A stretch of DNA of 64,000 nt from Candidatus Poribacteria bacterium (GCA_965208325.1 OZ242326.1:1408001-1472000); one strand, 5' to 3'; counted from the first letter of the stretch, positions 1,478-12,509 are shown. Made by a program: numbers and translations. Notes: generated by a model from the letters alone, not told the origin.

Positions 1478-3427
1478 TCATTCCGACTTTTGATTTGTGG
1501 TTTCTGTTTCATTAATCTTCATTTTCAATTCGTTCAGCCTGCGGCGGACTTCCTGATTGTACCGGTTGATTTCCAGAAACTCTTCCCATAGCGCAAGAGC
1601 CTCATCCGCATAACCTTGGGAGATGTAATACTCGCCTAGCGCAATATGGGCTACATCGGCATGGGGATCTTTTTCGATTGATTCCTTAAACGCTTCCACT
1701 GCAGCGTCAGCCTCTCCTTCGAGCAGAGCAAGCTGCCCCCGCCCGTAGGCAATTAATGCGTGTTCGGGAAATTCGGCTGCAAGCGCATCAATTGATTCCT
1801 TAGCCCTATCAGCCATGCCATCCTTGTGAGCCGCCATTGCTGCATGAATTTTGGCATCAATTATTTGAACGTCAAGCTGGTGCAGTTCCGCATTACTCTC
1901 TGTATTTTGCTTCTGCCGTGCGGCGATCCGCGCGGCGGCTTCGTATTTGGTTTTCGCCCGCGTGTAGTTTCCATATTTATAGCAGACATCTCCAAGCTCC
2001 TTCTCGCCGCGGTAAGTGTTGCCTTTTGCATCAACAAGATCCTGGAAAATTCCCGCCCGCTTACTCTGATTTAACTGATAGTAAAGCACCTCGGCCAGGC
2101 TCTGGAGTGCATCGGTGGAATCCGTTTTCGCTGCGACCGCGCGTTCAAAAGACTCCATGGCTTTATGCGGGTCGCCCATTTTCTTGTATGCGAGCCCCAT
2201 CCTCCAGTAAATCTCTGAATCCCTGAACTGATTGAAGCCGACGACGGTTTGGTATGTCTCGATGGCTTTTTCGAATTCATCATTGGCATACTGATTCTCA
2301 CCGGTTTTTATGATGGCTTCAATAACTTCTCGATTGCTCCTTACCGCCTTGTTTAATACTTCTTGAGCGCGCTGATGCATTCCGAGTTTGCGGTAGCAGA
2401 TTGATAAGCTGAGATAGCTATATGGACTAATTTCCGCTTCGGCTGCATTCGCGAGTTGAATTGCGCGGAAATATAGTGCCCCGGCATCCCGATAACCTTC
2501 CTCCTGAAAAAGCATGTTGGCAACCATTAGCATGGCATCATAATATGTGCCTTGTCCGTCCATTGAAAATTGAAAACTTCTCATAATTTTTTCACCGCTG
2601 ACGCCAAATCCGGAGTTCGCCTCCGGTGCGGCGCCCATCGCGCGGCTGCGTTCCGCCCCGGGCGGACGGTCGCGTTCTAGGCGTTTCTCCCGCCTAGCTA
2701 GACTCCGACCGGCTTGCGATGCTAATGGATCTTCAGGTTTTGGGATAGTCGCTCCCATTAATTGTAATTCTCGTTTGGCTTCGCTAATGGACGCATCTGT
2801 GCCTTCGACCTTGCCATACTTTTTCACGAGGGATTGATAGGTTCGTTTGGCTTCCGAGCTATCCTTGAGCTGGTCTTTCTGGATTTGGCCTTTCCTCACG
2901 AGTGCTTGCGCCGCACGGTCACTCTTAGGGTATCGGTTGGCGAAGTTGCCATAGATTTCCGCGGCTTGCTCATAGTTTTTGGCTTCCTCATAACTCTTTG
3001 CCAACAGCAGTTGAGCGTTACTACTCAACTCATGTTCCGGAAAATTGTTTATGATTGTGTCGAAGAATCCCCTCGCGGATTCATATTCCTTAGACTTCAA
3101 ATAGTGGACTCCAAGCCGATAGTTCGCTGATGCAGCCTCATCGCTGTCGGGCGCCGCGGCGATTATTGCCTGATAGGTTTCCACGCCTCTCTCAGGCTGG
3201 TTCATAGTTTCAACATAAAGCTTGCCTACGGCTAATTGCGCTTGCCGAGCGATTGGTGTGCCCGGATTAGACGCGACCAGCGCTTCGGCTACTTCAATGG
3301 CGCCGTGATAATCTTTCTCATCGATCAGTTTCTCGACTTCCCCGGTACCCTTGCCGGAAATACAGCTATATTGGGCAAGTACCATCACAGTTGCTAATAC
3401 GAATGCGCAAAACCTATTATATTTCAT
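1478..3427 (-). CDS. Tetratricopeptide repeat protein, probably a secreted lipoprotein (BamD/YbgF-like TPRs)
   Basis: N-terminal hydrophobic signal ending at a Cys; many TPR units (e.g. ANYRLGVHYLKSKEYESARGFFDTIINNFPEH). Confidence 0.85.
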   Translation of the reverse strand: MKYNRFCAFVLATVMVLAQYSCISGKGTGEVEKLIDEKDYHGAIEVAEALVASNPGTPIARQAQLAVGKLYVETMNQPERGVETYQAIIAAAPDSDEAASANYRLGVHYLKSKEYESARGFFDTIINNFPEHELSSNAQLLLAKSYEEAKNYEQAAEIYGNFANRYPKSDRAAQALVRKGQIQKDQLKDSSEAKRTYQSLVKKYGKVEGTDASISEAKRELQLMGATIPKPEDPLASQAGRSLARREKRLERDRPPGAERSRAMGAAPEANSGFGVSGEKIMRSFQFSMDGQGTYYDAMLMVANMLFQEEGYRDAGALYFRAIQLANAAEAEISPYSYLSLSICYRKLGMHQRAQEVLNKAVRSNREVIEAIIKTGENQYANDEFEKAIETYQTVVGFNQFRDSEIYWRMGLAYKKMGDPHKAMESFERAVAAKTDSTDALQSLAEVLYYQLNQSKRAGIFQDLVDAKGNTYRGEKELGDVCYKYGNYTRAKTKYEAAARIAARQKQNTESNAELHQLDVQIIDAKIHAAMAAHKDGMADRAKESIDALAAEFPEHALIAYGRGQLALLEGEADAAVEAFKESIEKDPHADVAHIALGEYYISQGYADEALALWEEFLEINRYNQEVRRRLNELKMKINETETTNQKSE

Positions 3428-3534
3428 TGTTCGTCCTCCTTATCTTGTAATCCGTCGATAAAGTTTAGGGTAGGTCTGTCGGTTTTCAGATTTTCAACTG
3501 ACAAGCAGTTATGAATTCAATGCTGTCCAAGTGT

Positions 3535-4668
3535 TCAATACATATTACTTAGTGCGCTCGCTTCAATGAGGTCATGCAGAAATTTACGGCTGTAACCTTC
3601 CTTTTCGAGCAGAGCATCGCAATCTACCGTGTTCCGCTCATTGGGCCCCTTGCCTGTCTCCAAAATCGAATTGGTGAGCCAACTTGTACGAATCCCGTTT
3701 ATGCCCGAGGTGTAGTTTGTGTTGTATTGACCTTTAGCCAAGCCAACGATCTGATCTACCTTGCAATGCGGATATCCCTTTGGACGCTGAAATGTTAGTG
3801 GCTGCGGCTCGCCGCCCTTTGGGATAAAGCGGATGCCGTCTTTAATCTCAAGAACTCCCGCGCTGCCTTCAAGGATAATCCATTCCTTGAAGCCAATTTG
3901 CGTGTTGCCAACGATTGTAATTTTACCGCTCGACCCATCCTCCATTGTGACCTCTGAGTATGAATCTACTTCTACAGCTTTCATTGAGATATTTCCATCT
4001 TTGTCTTCACTCTTTTTGTCTGTTGTACCGTGCACTTGCATTGGCAACAAGTCTGTCATCCAGAGGAAAATATCCTGCATATGGCTGCCGGAGTCATTCG
4101 GCTGCCCTCCGCCGGAGAATCGCGCATCCCCCCGCCATCCGCTGCCGGGCCAATGTTGCGCTAAGTAGACATCAAACTTTTCCAGTTTGCCGATTATGCC
4201 GTCCGAAAACGCCTTTCTGCCAGTGACATAGATTTCTTCATAATGGCGCTGATATCCGACGACCAGATGCAAACCCCGCCCCATGGCAATCTTGGTCATT
4301 GTAATTGCATCTCCAACAATGTTCGCCATCGGTTTTTCCACGATTACGTGACACCCGGCGCGTAACGCATATTTGGAATGGATATCGTGCAACGAGTGGG
4401 GCGAGAAAACGCCGACAATATCGAGATCCTCTTTGTCCAGCATCTCAATGAATTCATATTCGCCGACGTAACGATTGAAACTGTTTTTCTCGTAGTTTTC
4501 AACGTGTTCGCGGAGGGCATTTTCCAGCGTGTCTATACTTCGTTCACTGTTGTCAGCTACCGCGGCAATCTCAACATCGTCCCGTGCAGCAAACGCTAAC
4601 GTGTTTCCGCGCCCAGCTCCACCGGGACCTATCACACCGACTCTAACGATGCTGTTCTTACTCGCCAT
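3535..4668 (-). CDS. Gfo/Idh/MocA family oxidoreductase
   Basis: VRVGVIGPGGAG, HVIVEKPM, VGYQRH, GGGQPNDSGSH. Confidence 0.9.
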   Translation of the reverse strand: MASKNSIVRVGVIGPGGAGRGNTLAFAARDDVEIAAVADNSERSIDTLENALREHVENYEKNSFNRYVGEYEFIEMLDKEDLDIVGVFSPHSLHDIHSKYALRAGCHVIVEKPMANIVGDAITMTKIAMGRGLHLVVGYQRHYEEIYVTGRKAFSDGIIGKLEKFDVYLAQHWPGSGWRGDARFSGGGQPNDSGSHMQDIFLWMTDLLPMQVHGTTDKKSEDKDGNISMKAVEVDSYSEVTMEDGSSGKITIVGNTQIGFKEWIILEGSAGVLEIKDGIRFIPKGGEPQPLTFQRPKGYPHCKVDQIVGLAKGQYNTNYTSGINGIRTSWLTNSILETGKGPNERNTVDCDALLEKEGYSRKFLHDLIEASALSNMY

Positions 4669-4785
4669 AACAAGAATGGCTCCTATCCTTAAGAAGAATG
4701 GTTAACTTAGACTTCGATAATTCCGCCGAGAATGCGGCAGCGTTGGCGGTTTGGGTTTCTATTGTAGCGAAACGTTTTTTTTCGC

Positions 4786-5661
4786 TTAGACGCCTAATTG
4801 TCTGAGAACATCCTTCGTCGAAACCATATGTTTGGCGACCCCTAGTTCCTTTGGCGCCAAACCGAGCGCGAGGCCAATCATCTGCGGAAGGTGGAAAACT
4901 GGCACATCGAGTTTGCGTCCGACCACCTTGCTGACTGAAGGCTGTTGGAGGTCGAGATTCATGTGGCAGAGCGGACAAGGCGTCACCATGCAGTCGGCGC
5001 CTTTGTCCTTTGCCTCGCCAATGTGCTTTCCCGCCATTTTGAACGCGGCTTCCTCGTTCTCCAAGTTTATGGGAAACCCGCAGCATCGCGTTTTCCCGTA
5101 GTAATCCACAGGCGTTGCACCCACCGCTTCAATCACGCGTTCCAATGAGGTTGGATTGTCTGGGTTGTCAATTCCCATAACATCCGCAGGCCGAAGGATG
5201 TAACAGCCGTAAAACGGTGCGACGCGCAAACCTGTTAGCGGCTGTTTAACCATGCTGCGTAAATTTTCTGTACCGACCTCCTTGATTAGGACGTACAGAA
5301 GGTGCGTTACATCCACACTCCCGTGATATTCGTGTCCACCATTTTTGAGAACTTCGTTGACTTCTGCACGATAGCCTTCATCCTCGGACAGCTTTTTATT
5401 GCTATTGCGCAGACAGCCGATACATGTCGAACAGACCGTCATTAGCGGCAAGTCTAACTCCTCGGCGAGCGCAAGGGTCTTGGCATTGTACGTATCGGCT
5501 AGCACCGGATTCTGTGCTTGCAGGACTCCTGCGCCGCTGCAAGGCGCACCGGTAAGTTCAATCAACTCTATGCCAAGCAGGGGCGCAATCTTATGGGTGG
5601 ACTGGTTCAGTTCAGGACAGTTTCCCTTGGCAACACATCCGGGAAAGTAGGCAACTCTCAT
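4786..5661 (-). CDS. CCG-domain HdrB-like protein; probable non-heme anchor subunit of a type E succinate:quinone oxidoreductase
   Basis: AYFPGC, CSGAG, TVCSTC, FYGCY, CCGFP, VTPCPLCHMNLD; last gene of the sdh cluster. Confidence 0.88.
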   Translation of the reverse strand: MRVAYFPGCVAKGNCPELNQSTHKIAPLLGIELIELTGAPCSGAGVLQAQNPVLADTYNAKTLALAEELDLPLMTVCSTCIGCLRNSNKKLSEDEGYRAEVNEVLKNGGHEYHGSVDVTHLLYVLIKEVGTENLRSMVKQPLTGLRVAPFYGCYILRPADVMGIDNPDNPTSLERVIEAVGATPVDYYGKTRCCGFPINLENEEAAFKMAGKHIGEAKDKGADCMVTPCPLCHMNLDLQQPSVSKVVGRKLDVPVFHLPQMIGLALGLAPKELGVAKHMVSTKDVLRQLGV

Positions 5662-5789
5662 TCACTCCTCCTGTATCAATTCTGAGGGTCATAATTTGGT
5701 GTATGTTCCATTCTCGCTAGCAGACAAGCGTTTAATCTCGGCGCGGCACCGGCATCTATTGGCTGCATACGTTTAAATTGGCTGAAACA

Positions 5790-6539
5790 CTATCTGACTA
5801 TAGCTTTGAGGTATTCCCGCCTCATCGCGGCAATGTTTGAGATTGAAATCTCTTTAGGGCAGACTGCTTCGCATTCCGCATGGTTGGAACAATCTCCGAA
5901 TCCTTCCTTGTCCATCTGTTCAACCATATTGAGCGCGCGCCGTTTTCTCTCCGGTTTTCCCTGCGATAACAGCGCGAATTGTGTAATTCTCGCCCCAACA
6001 AACAGAGACCCAGATGCGTTCGGACACGCCGCGACGCACGCCCCGCAACCGATACACACAGCGGCGTCCATTGCTTGGTCCGCATCATCTTTAGGTATCG
6101 GCAATGCATTTGCATCGGGCGCCTCACCGACATTCACAGAGATATACCCCCCGGCTGCCATGATTCTATCGAAAGCGCTGCGATCCACAACCAAGTCTTT
6201 AATGACTGGAAACGCCTTCGCACGCCAAGGTTCGATGGTAATGGTATCGCCATCTCTGTACTCACGCATGTGAACTTGGCAGGCGGCGGTTGCGCGCCTT
6301 GGCCCGTGAGCCACGCCATTTATCACAAACCCGCACATACCGCAGATACCTTCGCGGCAGTCGTTGTCAAATTCAATCGCCTCTTCGCCTTTTTTGATGA
6401 GATCTTCATTCAGCATATCAAGCATTTCAAGAAACGACATATCGGGGGAAGCATTACTGATAGTGTAAGGTACCATCTTACCCGCACTGCCAGCGTCTTT
6501 TTGCCGCCAAATGAGCAAATTTAACGTCATGTTTCTCAT
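5790..6539 (-). CDS. sdhB: Succinate dehydrogenase/fumarate reductase iron-sulfur subunit (cytochrome b-associated, Bacteroidetes-like type)
   Basis: [10 protein letters not shown] [2Fe-2S], [12 protein letters not shown] [4Fe-4S], [12 protein letters not shown] [3Fe-4S]-type. Confidence 0.93.
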
Positions 6540-6584
6540 TATGGTTAAATTTAATTATTCAGAAATTGGCGTTCACGCCATTAC

Positions 6585-7301
6585 TCAAGACGCAACGCCC
6601 CTAAAGTAAATTATTATGGGGAGCAATAAAAACCCAACCGCCATGGCGGCGGCAAAGACAATACCCACTGCGTAGATAAAAGGTGCATAGCGCGGGTAGC
6701 CGATGCCGATAGATTGAAAAGCGCTCCAGAAACCGTGTCTAAGGTGCAAGCCAAGCAGCAGCATTACCGCAACGTATCCGATTACAGTCCAAATATTACT
6801 GAACTCCTCTTCCACCAATCTGTATATATCCCTAACCTCTTCGCCATGAATTTCCGTGAGGTGTGCGTCAACGTATTCTGCTTCGACGCCCGGCCCGAAC
6901 TTGAACATTTTGAGATGGATGATTACAAAGGCTAACAAAACTATCCCTGTAACCAGCATACTCACAGAACTCAAAGATTTTCGGCTCGGATGCCCTGCCC
7001 CAGCGGTTTTGAAATACCGCATGGCGCGGGGGCGCGCCTCCGTTTTGCGTACTGCAACCGATATCCCCATGATGATATGGACCGCGAAAACGGCGACGAG
7101 TCCAAGTTCAATAACGATGAGGATTTCGCCGAGGTTGTGCAACCAATGCGCATATCGATTAAAGGGTCCGGCATTTTTGTGAAGGAGTAAGAGGTTGCCC
7201 GACAAATGTTCAAGAATGAATACACATAAAACTAAACCCGTAATGCCCGTCAGAAATTTTTTGCCGACCGAAGACCAGACAATTGATGAAAATCGAGACA
7301 T
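6585..7301 (-). CDS. sdhC: Succinate dehydrogenase cytochrome b subunit (b558 family, about 5 TM helices)
   Basis: SSVGKKFLTGITG, EHLSGN, VHI, IHL and HLRHGFWSAFQSIG heme-ligand His motifs. Confidence 0.92.
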   Translation of the reverse strand: MSRFSSIVWSSVGKKFLTGITGLVLCVFILEHLSGNLLLLHKNAGPFNRYAHWLHNLGEILIVIELGLVAVFAVHIIMGISVAVRKTEARPRAMRYFKTAGAGHPSRKSLSSVSMLVTGIVLLAFVIIHLKMFKFGPGVEAEYVDAHLTEIHGEEVRDIYRLVEEEFSNIWTVIGYVAVMLLLGLHLRHGFWSAFQSIGIGYPRYAPFIYAVGIVFAAAMAVGFLLLPIIIYFRGVAS

Positions 7302-7434
7302 AACTTTAAATCAATTCACAGTTCGATATGGAAATTGTTGCATCATCTCGCACGATGGGCGAATGCCGCGGCGAAGTTCCGCAGGTATGGCGACACCGCT
7401 CTTCGACCAGATAGGCTGATTCTCTGTGGCGTCC

Positions 7435-8400
7435 CTACTCTGTCCCCTTCTTTACTTCCAACTCTTCATGGATGCGCCGGACATCTTGGACCTCCGTCAC
7501 CGATGGGTGGGTGCCGGGTAAAAGGGGTTTGATTTTACCTTTCAGGGTGGCTTTAATCGCGATGCCTGCGTTCCGAAAAGCCCAACCGATACCCGCCGCT
7601 TTTATGGGCAGCGTGCGTTCATCAAGCACGCCGGTGTGCGCTACACTTTCGGTAAAGTGCAGGACGTGTTTCGCGCCGACGTTGTCCGTCAAGCCAGCGT
7701 CAATCGCCAATTCACGAAGCTTAATAATCTGATCCATCGGGGCAACATTCTTCGGGCAGACCTGCACGCACTCCACACACCGCGTACAATCCCAGATACC
7801 GCCTTCCTCGCTCAATTCGGTTAGCCACTCATGGGATTTTGCGTGGCGCGGATCGCCAACGACACGGTACGCCTTAGCTAATGCCGCAGGCGCCAAGAAT
7901 TTTGACGTTTCCTCCAGCACCGTACAATCGCTCACACACGCACCGCACATAACGCAGTTCATCGGTTGCTGCAGTTCGACCATTTTGCTGTGCGGCACCT
8001 GATACTCACGATCGGGCGGTTCTCCCTCTGTCTCGATCCACGGCTTGACCTGCTGTATCTTGTCCCAAAACATCTCCATATCGGTCACAAGATCTTTGAC
8101 CACCTTCATGTTACCCATCGGCTCCACACAAACCTCTTCACCGTTGGGAGCAAGCTTCGAGAGGGCAGTTTTGCAACCCAACTTTGCGTGTCCGTTCACC
8201 CTAAAGGCACACGAACCGCAGACGGCGCTGCGGCACGAACACCGCATCGTCAGTGTGCCATCAATATCTTCACGCACCTTGATGAGTGCGTCTAATACGG
8301 TCGAGAAGTCTGGTAAACCGTCCACTTGATACGTGTCATAGTGCGGTTCTTGGTCTTTTTGCGGATCGTATCGGTACACTTTTAAGTTGGCTTGTATCAT
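7435..8400 (-). CDS. sdhB: Succinate dehydrogenase iron-sulfur subunit, long type E-like form
   Basis: CSCRSAVCGSC, CVMCGACVSDC, CTRCVECVQVCP (full four-Cys third cluster), C-terminal extension. Confidence 0.92.
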   Translation of the reverse strand: MIQANLKVYRYDPQKDQEPHYDTYQVDGLPDFSTVLDALIKVREDIDGTLTMRCSCRSAVCGSCAFRVNGHAKLGCKTALSKLAPNGEEVCVEPMGNMKVVKDLVTDMEMFWDKIQQVKPWIETEGEPPDREYQVPHSKMVELQQPMNCVMCGACVSDCTVLEETSKFLAPAALAKAYRVVGDPRHAKSHEWLTELSEEGGIWDCTRCVECVQVCPKNVAPMDQIIKLRELAIDAGLTDNVGAKHVLHFTESVAHTGVLDERTLPIKAAGIGWAFRNAGIAIKATLKGKIKPLLPGTHPSVTEVQDVRRIHEELEVKKGTE

Positions 8401-8504
8401 TCATCATCTCCTTTGGGACCCCAGCGGTTAGCGGCTTGCAACTCGAAAAAACACACGGATTTAACTATCCACAGACCGCTCGGCGCTGCCGTCGTACATC
8501 AGTG

Positions 8505-10208
8505 CTAATATTTCCGTGCCTCAGGCTGCCATTGGGTAATCGTCACCGGCAAATAGTTGATTGCGGGACCGTCGGGTGTTTGGTAGACAACCACATGTTT
8601 AATCCAGTTTTCATCGTCGCGTTCAGGGTAATCGGTCCGAGTATGCGCCCCCCGGCTCTCCTTCCGGGCAAGCGCACTAACGATTATCGTTTCCGCGCAG
8701 TCTAGCATGTAATCTAACTCTAGGACTGCCAATAAATCAGTATTGAACACACGCCCCTTATCGTGAACGGAGATTTCGTTATAACGATTACGAACTTCAC
8801 CGATTTGGCGTTGGGCTTCGAGCAAACCGGCTTCGTCTCGAAATACACCGGTGTATTGATGCATAATCTCGCCCATCTCTAGCCTTAAGGCTGGTGCGCG
8901 CAGGTCGGTTGAACGCGAAAAGATGTCGATTATTTTCTGCTCTTCTATCTCCACAGCTTGATCCGAGACGTTCGAAGGGTTTATACTCCTGGCGTAATCC
9001 GCGGCATGCGCCCCGGCTCGCCGGCCGAATGCGACGCAGTCGAGCAGGCTGTTTCCGCCCAAACGGTTTGCACCGTGCGCCGAAACACACGCTACTTCGC
9101 CGGCAGCATACAATCCGGGGAGCGCCTCTACACCATCGCCGTTTTGCCGGTAACACCGCCCATCCACGTCGGTCTTGATTCCGCCCATAATATAGTGCAT
9201 TCCCGGTCGAATTGGCAGCGGTTCCTGCGTGATGTCTACGTTAGCGTAATCCTGTGCGAGTTCGTATATCTGGTGGAACGCTTCCAAGATACGGTCTTTG
9301 ATATGCCGGCAATCCAGCAGCACACACCCGTCCACGCCGCGCCCTTCTTGGATTTCAATGGTTTCGGCGCGCGACACAACATCGCGTGAAGCTTTCTCCA
9401 GCAGTGTCGTGGCGCCGTAGCGTTCATTCTGCATAAAACGATCGCCGTCGGCGTTCAGTAAATAGGCGCCCTCGCCGCGCGCGCCTTCGGTGATGAGGAA
9501 GCCGTTGGCAGGCAGGGTTGTCGGGTGGTATTGAACCATCTCCATATCCATGATTAGCGCGCCGACCCTATAGGCTAATGCTAACCCGTCGCCCGTCACG
9601 ATTAACCCGTTGGTACTCGGTTCATAAACGCGGCCGCAGCCGCCCGTGCACAAGATGACCGATTTTGCCTTAAAGACCTCTAGTTTGCCGCTCACGATTT
9701 CCATCGCCACTGCACCGCAGCAGGCGCCATCGTCCATCAACAGCGTTGTCACGAACCACTCGTCATAGGATTTGACATCCATCCGGAGCAGTTGTTCGTA
9801 CATGACGTGAAGAATTGTTTGCCCGGTCATGTCCCCTACGTGGCAAGTGCGGCTCTTATCCGTGCCGCCGAAACCGCGCATGTGGATACGCCCTTCATCG
9901 TCGCGATCGAAGATAACACCGTGATGTTCAAGTGTGAATATATCCTGAATACCTTCGCTGCACAGAATCTCAATGGCGTCCTGATCGCCTAAGAAGTCGC
10001 TGCCCTTGACGGTTTCGTAAGCGTGAACCTCCCACGAGTCGGCAATACCGAGTGCCGCGTTGATGCCGCCCTGCGCCGCAGCCGAGTGCGAGCGTGTCGG
10101 GTACACTTTCGACATCATGGCTACGTCCGCGCCTGCCTGCCTCGCATGCAACGCAGCGCTCATTCCCGCCAAACCACCGCCAATAACGAGCACGTCGTGT
10201 TCAATCAT
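8505..10208 (-). CDS. sdhA: Succinate dehydrogenase/fumarate reductase flavoprotein subunit
   Basis: GGGLAG, RSHSAAAQGGINAA (covalent FAD His), QYHPT, TEGARGEG, HYIMGG, HGANRLGGNSL, ESRGAH. Confidence 0.96.
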   Translation of the reverse strand: MIEHDVLVIGGGLAGMSAALHARQAGADVAMMSKVYPTRSHSAAAQGGINAALGIADSWEVHAYETVKGSDFLGDQDAIEILCSEGIQDIFTLEHHGVIFDRDDEGRIHMRGFGGTDKSRTCHVGDMTGQTILHVMYEQLLRMDVKSYDEWFVTTLLMDDGACCGAVAMEIVSGKLEVFKAKSVILCTGGCGRVYEPSTNGLIVTGDGLALAYRVGALIMDMEMVQYHPTTLPANGFLITEGARGEGAYLLNADGDRFMQNERYGATTLLEKASRDVVSRAETIEIQEGRGVDGCVLLDCRHIKDRILEAFHQIYELAQDYANVDITQEPLPIRPGMHYIMGGIKTDVDGRCYRQNGDGVEALPGLYAAGEVACVSAHGANRLGGNSLLDCVAFGRRAGAHAADYARSINPSNVSDQAVEIEEQKIIDIFSRSTDLRAPALRLEMGEIMHQYTGVFRDEAGLLEAQRQIGEVRNRYNEISVHDKGRVFNTDLLAVLELDYMLDCAETIIVSALARKESRGAHTRTDYPERDDENWIKHVVVYQTPDGPAINYLPVTITQWQPEARKY

Positions 10209-10253
10209 AAAACTCCCTCTGCATTCTTCCTAATGCTATCGCAAATGATCCTA

Positions 10254-10283
10254 ATCTTACCAAGATTCGCATGATGTTGTCAA
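10254..10283 (-). promoter_or_regulatory. Putative sigma70 promoter of the sdh operon
   Basis: Minus strand TTGACA-N18-TAAGAT with an extended -10 TG. Confidence 0.55.
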
Positions 10284-10411
10284 TGAAATTCTTTACGCCG
10301 GTTGGCTGATCCCAACTGTTAAACATAACACATTCATCAACGCAAATGCAAGCGCTATATCGCAAGCAGTACGCTTCCCGAAACTTATGAACTGGAATCA
10401 ACTCAACGTGC

Positions 10412-10440
10412 TTGATTTTTCAGTAAATTCGTGCTAGAAT
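10412..10440 (+). promoter_or_regulatory. Putative sigma70 promoter of the NHL gene
   Basis: TTGATT-N17-TAGAAT with an extended -10 TG. Confidence 0.5.
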
Positions 10441-10502
10441 GGGGAGAATTCGTGGGGAGAGGTGCGCCATAGCCAAGTTAGAATTGAGGAGATATTGAAG
10501 TT

Positions 10503-12509
10503 ATGAAAAAAACGATTGCCCTTTTGATTATTGCTTGCATGTATTACATATATGGAACCGGGCTGGCATTTGGGGTTAGTTTTCTAAAATTTGAGCGCGA
10601 GTTTAGCGGAAAAGGCAGCACAAACGGGGCATTCAGCAAAAACGTCCACGTTGCATTCGACGCCGAAGGCAACATTTATGTGAGCGATGCTGATAACAGG
10701 CTGCTGCAGAAACTGTCGTCGACAGGCGAATTCTTGATGCAAACCCCTATGGATCCTAAATCGACGGAAAATATTCTGAAAAAGCCGGGCGACATCGCGG
10801 TAGATGGGGAGGGCAACATATACGTAGCTGATAACACCGCGCACCACATCAAAGAAACAGAAAATCCGAAAATCTACATGTTTGCGCCGTGTGTTTACAA
10901 GCTCAATCCTAGCGGTGAGTTGATGCACACCTATTTCGTTGACCCCGTTGATGTACGCCCAAAGCAGGTATTGCCCGCGCACCTGATGATTGACGAAGAC
11001 GGCAAATCCGCCTTTGGGATTCAGCCGAAACTGCATGACCGTAAATTGCTAGTTGATGTCAACCGCCAAAACCAGCTGTACGTACTTGACCAGAAAAAGT
11101 CCACAGTCAGCATGTTTGGCGCAGATGGTGAAAAATTAAGGGAGTTTGGCAGGTACGGCGCAGCGAACGGAGAATTCGACGGCGATGCCTCCGACATTGA
11201 AATTGACAGCGCGGGGAATGTGCTAATTGCAGACACCGGCAACCACCGCGTGGTCAAGTTTAATCCGGACGGGCAATTCGTGCTGAGTTTCGGCATTAAA
11301 GGACGCGGCAGCGGCGAATTCACCAAACCGCTGGCAATCGCCGCGCTGGCGACCGGCGAGATTCTTGTCAAGGATGCCAGCCAATTCAAGCGTCATCTGG
11401 GTGGATTGCCAGCCGGCGGCTTGATGACGTTAATCTCGCCGTCCGGCGTTGGGATTGCCGATACCGTTACGGCGAACGCGCGGAATAGAAATACGATACT
11501 CGGTCAAAATATGCCGGGGCAATCCGATTTGGACGTATTGCAGCGGCGAATTCGACTTCTGGAGGAGGCAGAATACAGGCGGTATTTCAGCGAATATTTC
11601 GATGAAGAGGACGATAAAGATAAAAATAAGAAAGAGGAAGACGAAGATCTGAAAGCAGCGGCAGTCCGAGCGACTATCTATCACAATGTCATCGCCAGGG
11701 TTCAGAAATTCGACAGCAACGGCAGATACAAAGACCGCGTAATTTATGAGGTCGATAAACAGAGCGATACAGACCGCGACATCGCATTTCTGGCGTTGGA
11801 TTCCTTGGGCCGAATCTACCTGCGTAATGCGAGCGATTTGACTATCCATCAATATTCAATCGCCGGGTTCACGATAAAGCCGTCGCACATGAACGCGCTC
11901 TACAACTCCAGAGCAAGCAACATTGACACCGAGTTTCTTGAAGACTACGAGGATATCGACGCGCACGCGGACGTGATAGATCAATTCAATCAGTTGCGCA
12001 TGGATAACACCTTTTTCTGGACTTATGCCCTGTCGGAACGCTGGAATCTGATGTTGGTCGACACCCTTAGCTACGGTGAAATAGACGAACGCTACACCAC
12101 GCCTCCCAAACGCGAGGACAGCTATGACCTAGATACGAATGCGCTCACGAACACTTTCGCTGCAAACCTAAAATTCATCACCAATCCAAATCCTTACCAA
12201 TATCAAGAACTAAACTTATATGCCGAACGGGTTGACGGCAGGACGGAACTTGGCAGAAACGCAATCTACCAAGACCTGAATCGACAGCGCCAAGAAGATG
12301 AAGGCGATGCCGAATCATTAGCTGTCGGACTAAACTGGGATATCTTGTCCAAGATGAATTTGTGGCTTGAATACTCCGATCTCAATCCCGCCGATACAAG
12401 CCGCAACTATACCCGCCGCTACTTCGATGTTTCTGGAGATCTCTACGAAGTCTTCGCTATCCGGAATCAGAGAAAACAGTTTTTGGGTGAATTGTCGATA
12501 AAATTTTAA
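10503..12509 (+). CDS. Secreted NHL-repeat (beta-propeller) protein with a possible C-terminal outer-membrane beta-barrel
   Basis: Signal peptide; NHL repeats (VAFDAEGNIYVSDADN, IAVDGEGNIYVAD, IDSAGNVLIADTGNHRVVKF); amphipathic strands ending FLGELSIKF. Confidence 0.8.
   Translation: MKKTIALLIIACMYYIYGTGLAFGVSFLKFEREFSGKGSTNGAFSKNVHVAFDAEGNIYVSDADNRLLQKLSSTGEFLMQTPMDPKSTENILKKPGDIAVDGEGNIYVADNTAHHIKETENPKIYMFAPCVYKLNPSGELMHTYFVDPVDVRPKQVLPAHLMIDEDGKSAFGIQPKLHDRKLLVDVNRQNQLYVLDQKKSTVSMFGADGEKLREFGRYGAANGEFDGDASDIEIDSAGNVLIADTGNHRVVKFNPDGQFVLSFGIKGRGSGEFTKPLAIAALATGEILVKDASQFKRHLGGLPAGGLMTLISPSGVGIADTVTANARNRNTILGQNMPGQSDLDVLQRRIRLLEEAEYRRYFSEYFDEEDDKDKNKKEEDEDLKAAAVRATIYHNVIARVQKFDSNGRYKDRVIYEVDKQSDTDRDIAFLALDSLGRIYLRNASDLTIHQYSIAGFTIKPSHMNALYNSRASNIDTEFLEDYEDIDAHADVIDQFNQLRMDNTFFWTYALSERWNLMLVDTLSYGEIDERYTTPPKREDSYDLDTNALTNTFAANLKFITNPNPYQYQELNLYAERVDGRTELGRNAIYQDLNRQRQEDEGDAESLAVGLNWDILSKMNLWLEYSDLNPADTSRNYTRRYFDVSGDLYEVFAIRNQRKQFLGELSIKF

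Follow-up and report, generated by a model that had tools for sequence, protein, structure and literature searches.

We analyzed a 64,000-nucleotide stretch of a Candidatus Poribacteria bacterium genome (GCA_965208325.1 OZ242326.1:1408001-1472000), hereafter the window, which is G000:C1:1408001-1472000 of a single 4.71-Mb contig. The open reading frame (ORF) listing of the window places five succinate dehydrogenase genes, all on the minus strand, between positions 4786 and 10208, in the order that a preliminary description of this DNA had given: a flavoprotein gene (sdhA1), a long iron-sulfur subunit gene with a four-cysteine third cluster motif (sdhB1), a cytochrome b gene (sdhC), a short iron-sulfur subunit gene with a three-cysteine motif (sdhB2), and a gene for a CCG subunit (sdhE). 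The genes and one of the spacers between them are given here in the direction of transcription; G000 is the genome of the window, G001-G003 are of the same genus, G009 is of a sister genus, and sdhA2 is a second flavoprotein gene considered below.

8505-10208, minus strand: sdhA1, flavoprotein of the type E enzyme, 567 amino acids (TIGR01812, 708 bits; cut-off 567).
7435-8400, minus strand: sdhB1, long iron-sulfur subunit of the type E enzyme, 321 amino acids (NF004616, 239 bits; cut-off 228).
6585-7301, minus strand: sdhC, single cytochrome-b anchor of the type B enzyme, 238 amino acids (TIGR02046, b558 family, 142 bits; cut-off 96).
6540-6584, minus strand: sdhC-sdhB2 spacer, 45 bp, the putative former place of sdhA2 as judged from the junction sequences of G000, G001, G002, G003, G009, G021, and G027.
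5790-6539, minus strand: sdhB2, short iron-sulfur subunit of the type B enzyme, 249 amino acids (NF005746/PRK07570, 420 bits; cut-off 243).
4786-5661, minus strand: sdhE, HdrB-like subunit of the type E enzyme, 291 amino acids (Pfam CCG, PF02754, two stretches, E = 4.8e-28).

The intergenic gaps from sdhA1 to sdhE measure 104, 133, 45, and 128 bp, and the distance of 45 bp between sdhC and the short sdhB is as previously described.

The products of sdhA1, sdhB1, and sdhE have the features of a type E complex. In such enzymes, according to PMC2754724, the third cluster motif of SdhB has an extra cysteine, and a second [4Fe-4S] cluster takes the place of the [3Fe-4S] cluster. The corresponding motif of SdhB1, CTRCVECVQVCP (residues 205-216), contains four cysteines in the arrangement C205-x2-C208-x2-C211-x3-C215-P, the pattern predicted for a second [4Fe-4S] cluster. 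(Both third-cluster motifs quoted in the preliminary description were found, the other one in residues 217-228 of SdhB2.) SdhB1 also has a C-terminal extension, and the long-SdhB models NF009227 and NF009226 matched it over residues 4-313 with scores below their cut-offs. SdhE contains 12 cysteines and two CCG stretches, of which one reads CCG at residues 193-195 and the N-terminal copy reads C-S-G; it scored 256 bits with MFR_anch_SdhE (cut-off 500) and 231 bits with HdrB, both below cut-off. Neither SdhB1 nor SdhE contains a hydrophobic segment, and SdhE, with CCG domains and no predicted transmembrane helix, has the composition expected of a type E anchor. SdhA1 starts directly with the flavin adenine dinucleotide (FAD) fold (GGGLAG at residue 10), carries the covalent-FAD histidine motif RSHSAAAQGG at residue 39 (His41), and has no RR motif, that is, no twin-arginine leader, in its first 40 residues. 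We considered and rejected the possibility that the type E enzyme is a periplasmic 8-methylmenaquinol:fumarate reductase (MFR) like the SdhABE of epsilonproteobacteria: SdhA1 lacks a twin-arginine leader and keeps the FAD-binding histidine, and is therefore presumably oriented toward the cytoplasm and no equivalog of MFR. The MFR equivalog models all fell far below their cut-offs (446 of 1100 bits for SdhA1; 175 of 600 and 256 of 500 bits for the other two).

SdhC and SdhB2 have the features of a type B enzyme. Hydropathy analysis revealed five hydrophobic segments in SdhC, and His32, His75, His129, His186, and His189 were invariant in an alignment with 5/5 poribacterial homologues. SdhC is thereby a predicted type B anchor, a class with five helices and four histidine heme ligands, for which it offers five candidate histidines. 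The third motif of SdhB2 has three cysteines, C217-x5-C223-x3-C227-P, which is the [3Fe-4S]-type pattern, and together with membership in the PRK07570 family this marks SdhB2 as a putative type B subunit. What the row does not display is the customary gene order of either enzyme: the contiguity of sdhA-sdhB-sdhE in type E operons is interrupted here by sdhC and sdhB2, and the type B order sdhC-sdhA-sdhB is replaced by an sdhB2 that follows directly after sdhC. Both of these are traits of gene order and not of the enzymes.

The preliminary description had entertained a hybrid enzyme in which one SdhA serves two modules, and had proposed that the genome be searched for a second sdhA. That search was successful. 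A frame at G000:C1:1-1563, outside the window and 1.4 Mb from its genes, matched NF005749/PRK07573 with 900.6 bits (cut-off 866) over profile positions 120-641. SdhA1 reached only 251-256 bits with the same model, and the two flavoproteins are only about 28% identical. The flavoproteins that accompany PRK07570 SdhB and b558 SdhC are those of PRK07573, and matches to this set (PRK07570/PRK07573/TIGR02046) scored above cut-off in the control genomes of Bacteroides thetaiotaomicron, Corynebacterium glutamicum, and Synechococcus elongatus. The frame, sdhA2, is thus the predicted cognate flavoprotein gene of the type B enzyme, and its conservation in the congeners (see below) removes the ground for a hybrid. 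SdhA-like frames in G000 number three: sdhA1, sdhA2, and nadB (L-aspartate oxidase; TIGR00551, 560 bits). The inventory of G000 therefore comprises two succinate dehydrogenase flavoproteins, two SdhB, one SdhC, and one SdhE, with all SdhB and SdhC matches in the window, and thus one full set each for a type E and a type B enzyme.

We consider it highly probable that these are two separate, conventional succinate:quinone oxidoreductases whose genes are interleaved. The first would be a heme-less type E complex composed of SdhA1, the long SdhB1, and the CCG protein SdhE. Succinate would be oxidized at SdhA1, with FAD held covalently at the His41 motif, and electrons would pass from FAD through a [2Fe-2S], a [4Fe-4S], and the second [4Fe-4S] cluster to the CCG subunit, which would sit on the inner side of the membrane, and from there to quinone. 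The second would be a type B complex composed of the diheme cytochrome b SdhC, SdhB2 with its [3Fe-4S] cluster, and SdhA2, in which electrons would travel from SdhA2 via SdhB2 to the two hemes of SdhC and across the membrane to quinone. SdhA2 would be made from a separate transcript and would assemble in trans with SdhB2-SdhC. The direction of catalysis assumed here is provisional, as which enzyme runs which way is not readable from sequence. Menaquinone, synthesized via futalosine, is the probable quinone: G000 has three MqnA/MqnD matches over cut-off and no UbiA match over its cut-off, and MenA was not found in this genome.

The gene order in relatives suggests how the interleaving arose. 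Within the genus, 4/4 single-contig assemblies (G000-G003) share the order sdhA1-sdhB1-sdhC-sdhB2-sdhE-GFO-TPR, where GFO is a gene of the GFO/IDH/MocA family, and have sdhA2 elsewhere; the five-gene order is thus conserved, a point that the preliminary description had wished to see checked. The sister-genus genome G009 has the full order sdhA1-sdhB1-[sdhC-sdhA2-sdhB2]-sdhE. The metagenome contig L124 likewise reads sdhB1-sdhC-sdhA2-sdhB2-sdhE, and L123 agrees as far as the contig reaches; contigs L123-L125 are 98-99% identical to G009 in DNA and belong to the same lineage. In G009 an extra ORF of 235 amino acids (L020 3743-4450) lies between sdhA1 and sdhB1, in a gap widened to 1.4 kb that is also present in L123. 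In genera g4 and g5, of the same family, sdhB1 adjoins sdhE, and a type B SdhB was not found in either. Genus g12 has sdhC-sdhA2-sdhB2 alone. Finally, in genus g10 of another poribacterial family (G021, G067, and L054) the order sdhA1>sdhB1>sdhE> is convergent with <sdhB2<sdhA2<sdhC. Because the two operons are convergent neighbors in another family, their linkage evidently predates the nesting. The convergent operons lie about 130-140 nucleotides apart in L022 (G021), G067:C74, L054, and L055. Type B genes have a patchy distribution, occurring in 10/176 genomes of the phylum, and sdhB1 and sdhE are contiguous, at a distance of 88-314 nucleotides, in 8/8 non-congeneric genomes with both, as compared with about 1.78 kb in the genus of the window.

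A wider comparison indicates how unusual the row is. We fetched 80 loci with an SdhC alignment from across bacteria and set aside nine with less than 1.5 kb of downstream sequence, leaving 71 informative loci. The type B sdhA gene directly follows sdhC in 68 of these, which bears out the earlier statement that this kind of sdhC and short sdhB normally flank a flavoprotein gene of their own. The remaining three loci are L037 (the G002 locus), L065, and L079, and the genus of the window is the only one in which sdhC is followed directly by sdhB. In L065, an Acidobacteriota chromosome, the 6 kb downstream of sdhC contain neither a type B sdhA nor a type B sdhB, and in L079, a Gemmatimonadota contig, a 3.3-kb insert separates sdhC from sdhA.

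The junctions are consistent with a clean excision. In G009 the sdhC stop codon overlaps the sdhA2 start codon (TGATG), and sdhA2 ends 12 nucleotides before the start of sdhB2; that start is common to G009 and the genus of the window (ATG A[AG]A AAC ATG ACG), and the sdhC-sdhB2 spacers of G000-G003 have diverged from one another, ranging from 45 to about 57 nucleotides. In the succession of events that we favor, a complete sdhC-sdhA2-sdhB2 cassette would, in a single lineage of Poribacteria, have come to separate sdhB1 from sdhE, after which, in the genus of the window, sdhA2 would have been removed precisely from the cassette, leaving 45 bp here, and kept at a new site. Of the two alternatives offered in the preliminary description, an inserted sdhC-sdhB cassette whose sdhA was lost or relocated, and an SdhA shared by two modules, it is the first that has survived, and in its relocation form: G009 retains the nested cassette, and sdhA2 lies some 1-1.4 Mb away in the genus of the window. 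Both enzymes are of known kinds, and it is the arrangement of their genes that is a rare variant, in which an operon was nested inside another and later split.

The origin of the relocated gene was addressed with a flavoprotein tree of 71 rows, built on the 521 residues present in G000 from hits with at least 40% identity and at least 90% coverage (a quick IQ-TREE run, LG+G4, no bootstrap). The four relocated sdhA2 genes and the in-operon copies of G009, L054, and L055 form a clade with a support of 95 in the Shimodaira-Hasegawa-like approximate likelihood ratio test (SH-aLRT), and the phylogeny places the relocated sdhA2 as a descendant of the in-operon copy. Outside the genus, the closest SdhB2 and SdhC are likewise those of G009, and the SdhC clade of the genus and G009 has a support of 99. 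Moreover, the 20 nucleotides before the start codon of the relocated sdhA2 resemble the last codons, at the 3' end, of G009 sdhC, a resemblance that is suggestive only, as this sequence is under constraint from ribosome-binding sites.

Purifying selection acts on all six sdh genes. Pairwise ratios of nonsynonymous to synonymous substitution rates (dN/dS; Nei-Gojobori), calculated for the four congeners, whose dS values reach about 1.0, were 0.05-0.11 for sdhA1 (0.03-0.11 when G009 was included), 0.03-0.09 for sdhB1, 0.03-0.14 for sdhC, 0.04-0.12 for sdhB2, 0.03-0.05 for sdhE, and 0.09-0.13 for sdhA2. No internal stop codon was found in any of the six genes in these genomes.

In G001 and G003 sdhA2 is full length (profile positions 4-641, open frames of 643 amino acids; the G001 ORF has 637 amino acids) and lies about 1.0 Mb from sdhC-sdhB2. 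It is located, in continuous sequence, behind a DUF6785/DUF6784 membrane-protein gene and before a GFO/IDH/MocA gene, GFO2, which follows sdhA2 in 4/4 genomes of the genus. A 32-kb contig of an independent sequencing run spans the sdhA2-GFO2 region. In G000, however, the start of the contig truncates sdhA2, whose frame is open right from base 1. When the G000 contig is aligned with G001, its two ends fall 3.8 kb apart, and between them lie an ABC ATPase gene, the DUF6785/DUF6784 gene, and the 5' part of sdhA2. Contigs from public runs, compared with the first 3 kb of the G000 contig, continue upstream of its base 1 by 477 nucleotides (X1, possibly the source), 370 nucleotides (X4), and at least 543 nucleotides (X5, from an independent study; two studies in all). 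Because the contig ends are 3.8 kb apart on G001 and the run contigs extend upstream, the truncation of sdhA2 is an assembly cut. The G002 contig also begins inside sdhA2, with about 2.7 kb missing between its ends relative to G001. Thus, the single-contig assemblies of G000 and G002 are not closed circles at sdhA2.

The size of the DUF6785 family may be the reason for these breaks. A single protein query (E <= 1e-30) had 60, 81, 23, and 13 DUF6785 matches in four poribacterial genomes (G009, G021, G059, and G006). The gene of this hugely expanded family that lies upstream of the relocated sdhA2 is at L033 8464-10386 in G001, and DUF6785 genes often seem to accompany ABC ATPase genes. The GFO2 orthologues of G009 (72% identity) and G021 (69%) do not adjoin DUF6785. 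The sdh row and the relocated sdhA2 each have a GFO/IDH/MocA gene beside them; recombination between the two as the cause of the relocation was rejected, as their products (window 3535-4668 and L008 1635-2807) are only 23% identical. The 96-233 first-look candidates per genome for one protein suggest that GFO/IDH/MocA genes form a very large paralogue family in Poribacteria.

Several observations weigh against the proposed nesting and relocation and against two intact enzymes. The intact nested state is documented in one lineage only, G009 and the contigs 98-99% identical to it. Within that lineage, contig L125, 99% identical to L124 and G009, carries an in-operon sdhA2 (2331-3772) with a 472-nucleotide deletion, which removes residues ~37-201 and shifts the frame, next to intact sdhC and sdhB2. 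The deletion could be a rare variant, a loss that occurred recently, or an error of short-read assembly, and some cells may thus have sdhC-sdhB2 without a cognate flavoprotein; a second type B sdhA was not found in G009, which is 90% complete. Approximately 116 first codons of sdhA2 are missing from the G000 assembly, so that the intactness of the gene in this genome is judged from its congeners. The empty insertion site of sdhA2, which we sought in G009, G021, G006, G059, and G027, could not be reconstructed. Finally, assembly in trans and cotranscription of the row are both deduced from the DNA itself.

How, then, do other explanations fare? SdhA1 could be a promiscuous flavoprotein that docks on either SdhB1-SdhE or SdhB2-SdhC, giving one unit with two electron exits, with SdhA2 being redundant or otherwise used. 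Such sharing would suit five genes on one strand with no predicted terminator in their gaps and the persistence of sdhC-sdhB2 in the type E row in 4/4 congeners; bioRxiv 10.1101/2021.09.27.461999 reports one sdhA-like and two sdhB-like genes for Synechocystis sp. PCC 6803; and L125, in which sdhA2 is broken but sdhC and sdhB2 are intact, leaves sharing a small probability. We nevertheless regard sharing as quite improbable, given that the type B flavoprotein gene, descended from the in-operon copy, is kept under selection in 4/4 congeners, that SdhA1 and SdhA2 are so dissimilar, that the inventory fits two complete enzymes, and that relatives with only a type E or only a type B system each carry a flavoprotein of their own. 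A related and more speculative idea, which we judge improbable, is that sdhC-sdhB2 are kept in the type E row not by accident: made together with SdhA1-SdhB1-SdhE, their products might work with either of the two flavoproteins or join the type E enzyme in one assembly, and a separately controlled SdhA2 would switch the cell between configurations. If this were so, L125 would provide a natural example in which SdhC-SdhB2 function with no flavoprotein of their own.

Two further alternatives deny the type B genes a function or a true position. That sdhC-sdhB2 are a decaying, nonfunctional leftover from the departure of the flavoprotein gene would be in keeping with the disruption here of an order maintained in 68/71 loci and with the patchiness of type B genes in the phylum. 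It is very improbable in view of the full-length sdhC and sdhB2 frames of 4/4 congeners, which have persisted over synonymous divergences of up to about 1.0 with dN/dS values of 0.03-0.14, of the conservation of all cysteine ligands and five histidines, and of the like conservation of sdhA2; the relaxed selection on sdhC and the short sdhB that the preliminary description had named as a way in which its proposal could fail did not materialize. Nor did the assembly chimera that it had also named: the five-gene order recurs in 4/4 assemblies of the genus, and word matches to the row occur in sequencing runs from 15 studies, sponge metagenomes among them. The region is evidently hard to assemble, as the G000 and G002 contigs both start inside sdhA2, and an assembler might have misplaced a gene that truly lies between sdhC and sdhB2, but we give this hardly any credence: the sdhC-spacer-sdhB2 junction is present in 4/4 independent single-contig assemblies with diverged spacers, sdhA2 sits within continuous sequence between DUF6785 and GFO2 in G001 and G003, and the 32-kb contig of the independent run covers sdhA2-GFO2. 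Two interleaved enzymes, one of them with a relocated catalytic subunit gene, is the explanation that we prefer.

Two further features border the row.

10254-10283, minus strand: candidate promoter, TTGACA-18-TAAGAT, a 10/12 consensus match 46 nucleotides upstream of sdhA1.
3535-4668, minus strand: GFO/IDH/MocA oxidoreductase gene, downstream, conserved beside sdhE in G000-G003 and G009.

The five genes are presumably cotranscribed, as judged by their common strand, their spacing, and gaps that contain no predicted terminator. The promoter-like site is a weak candidate for a promoter of the whole row, being a consensus match only, and the scan in which it was detected yielded eight sites as compared with 8.1 expected in shuffled sequences. 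In the terminator scan the only minus-strand terminator-like hairpins were located inside sdhC. One of these, a GC hairpin with a T-run in the 3' part of the gene ~50 nucleotides before the stop codon (window 6637-6655, minus strand), is probably due to chance (four sites versus 6.7 expected in shuffled sequences). A scan of positions 3400-10600 with Rfam at E values up to 0.1 gave 0 matches. The GFO/IDH/MocA gene is probably not part of the sdh enzymes.

Had one flavoprotein fed two unrelated electron-transfer modules, the respiratory architecture would have been new, but the evidence points to two ordinary enzymes. What the locus offers instead is a view of operon evolution in an uncultured phylum of sponge symbionts, in which four stages are represented in living relatives: separate operons, convergent neighbors, a nested cassette, and a cassette from which one gene has moved about 1 Mb. 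Every subunit stays under purifying selection after the move of sdhA2, and it would appear that a membrane complex can have its catalytic subunit uncoupled, in transcription, from the other subunits. The locus also carries a warning for the automated metabolic reconstruction of metagenome-assembled genomes, in which it could be misread as a five-subunit or an incomplete enzyme. A full-text search returned no paper on sdh gene organization in Poribacteria, as judged by titles and the beginnings of abstracts.

The first of the two enzymes resembles the type E, or nonclassical, systems described in PMC2754724 and PMC2680327, namely SdhABEF of Sulfolobus and Acidianus and SdhABE of Wolinella succinogenes and Campylobacter jejuni. 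The shared features are a flavoprotein with a four-cysteine SdhB, a CCG subunit without transmembrane helices in place of SdhC/D, and, in relatives of the window organism, a contiguous sdhA-sdhB-sdhE. In the window, by contrast, sdhB1 and sdhE are parted by two genes of another enzyme. Unlike in SdhABEF, no SdhF-like gene was identified in the row, whose intergenic gaps contain no minus-strand ORF of at least 80 amino acids, as every ORF listed there on that strand overlaps an sdh gene (no SdhF model was searched); according to PMC2680327, SdhF is absent from the bacterial sdhABE operons. The same paper gives the W. succinogenes MFR a twin-arginine leader and no FAD-binding histidine, and SdhA1 is the opposite on both counts.

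The second enzyme resembles the diheme type B succinate:menaquinone reductases or quinol:fumarate reductases with the gene order sdhC-sdhA-sdhB (PRK07570/PRK07573/TIGR02046) in its single five-helix cytochrome b with conserved histidines, its short three-cysteine SdhB, and its long matching flavoprotein (about 640 amino acids). It differs from them in that, in the genus of the window, the flavoprotein gene is about 1 to 1.4 Mb away and sdhC-sdhB2 lie inside the operon of another enzyme. Dispersed sdh genes as such are already known, for example, from Synechocystis sp. PCC 6803 (bioRxiv 10.1101/2021.09.27.461999). There, too, the sdh genes do not form one operon, and there are two SdhB paralogues and a CCG third subunit (Slr0201). 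Whereas Synechocystis is described with a single sdhA-like ORF, however, the genome of the window has two flavoproteins of different families and, in addition, a cytochrome-b anchor.

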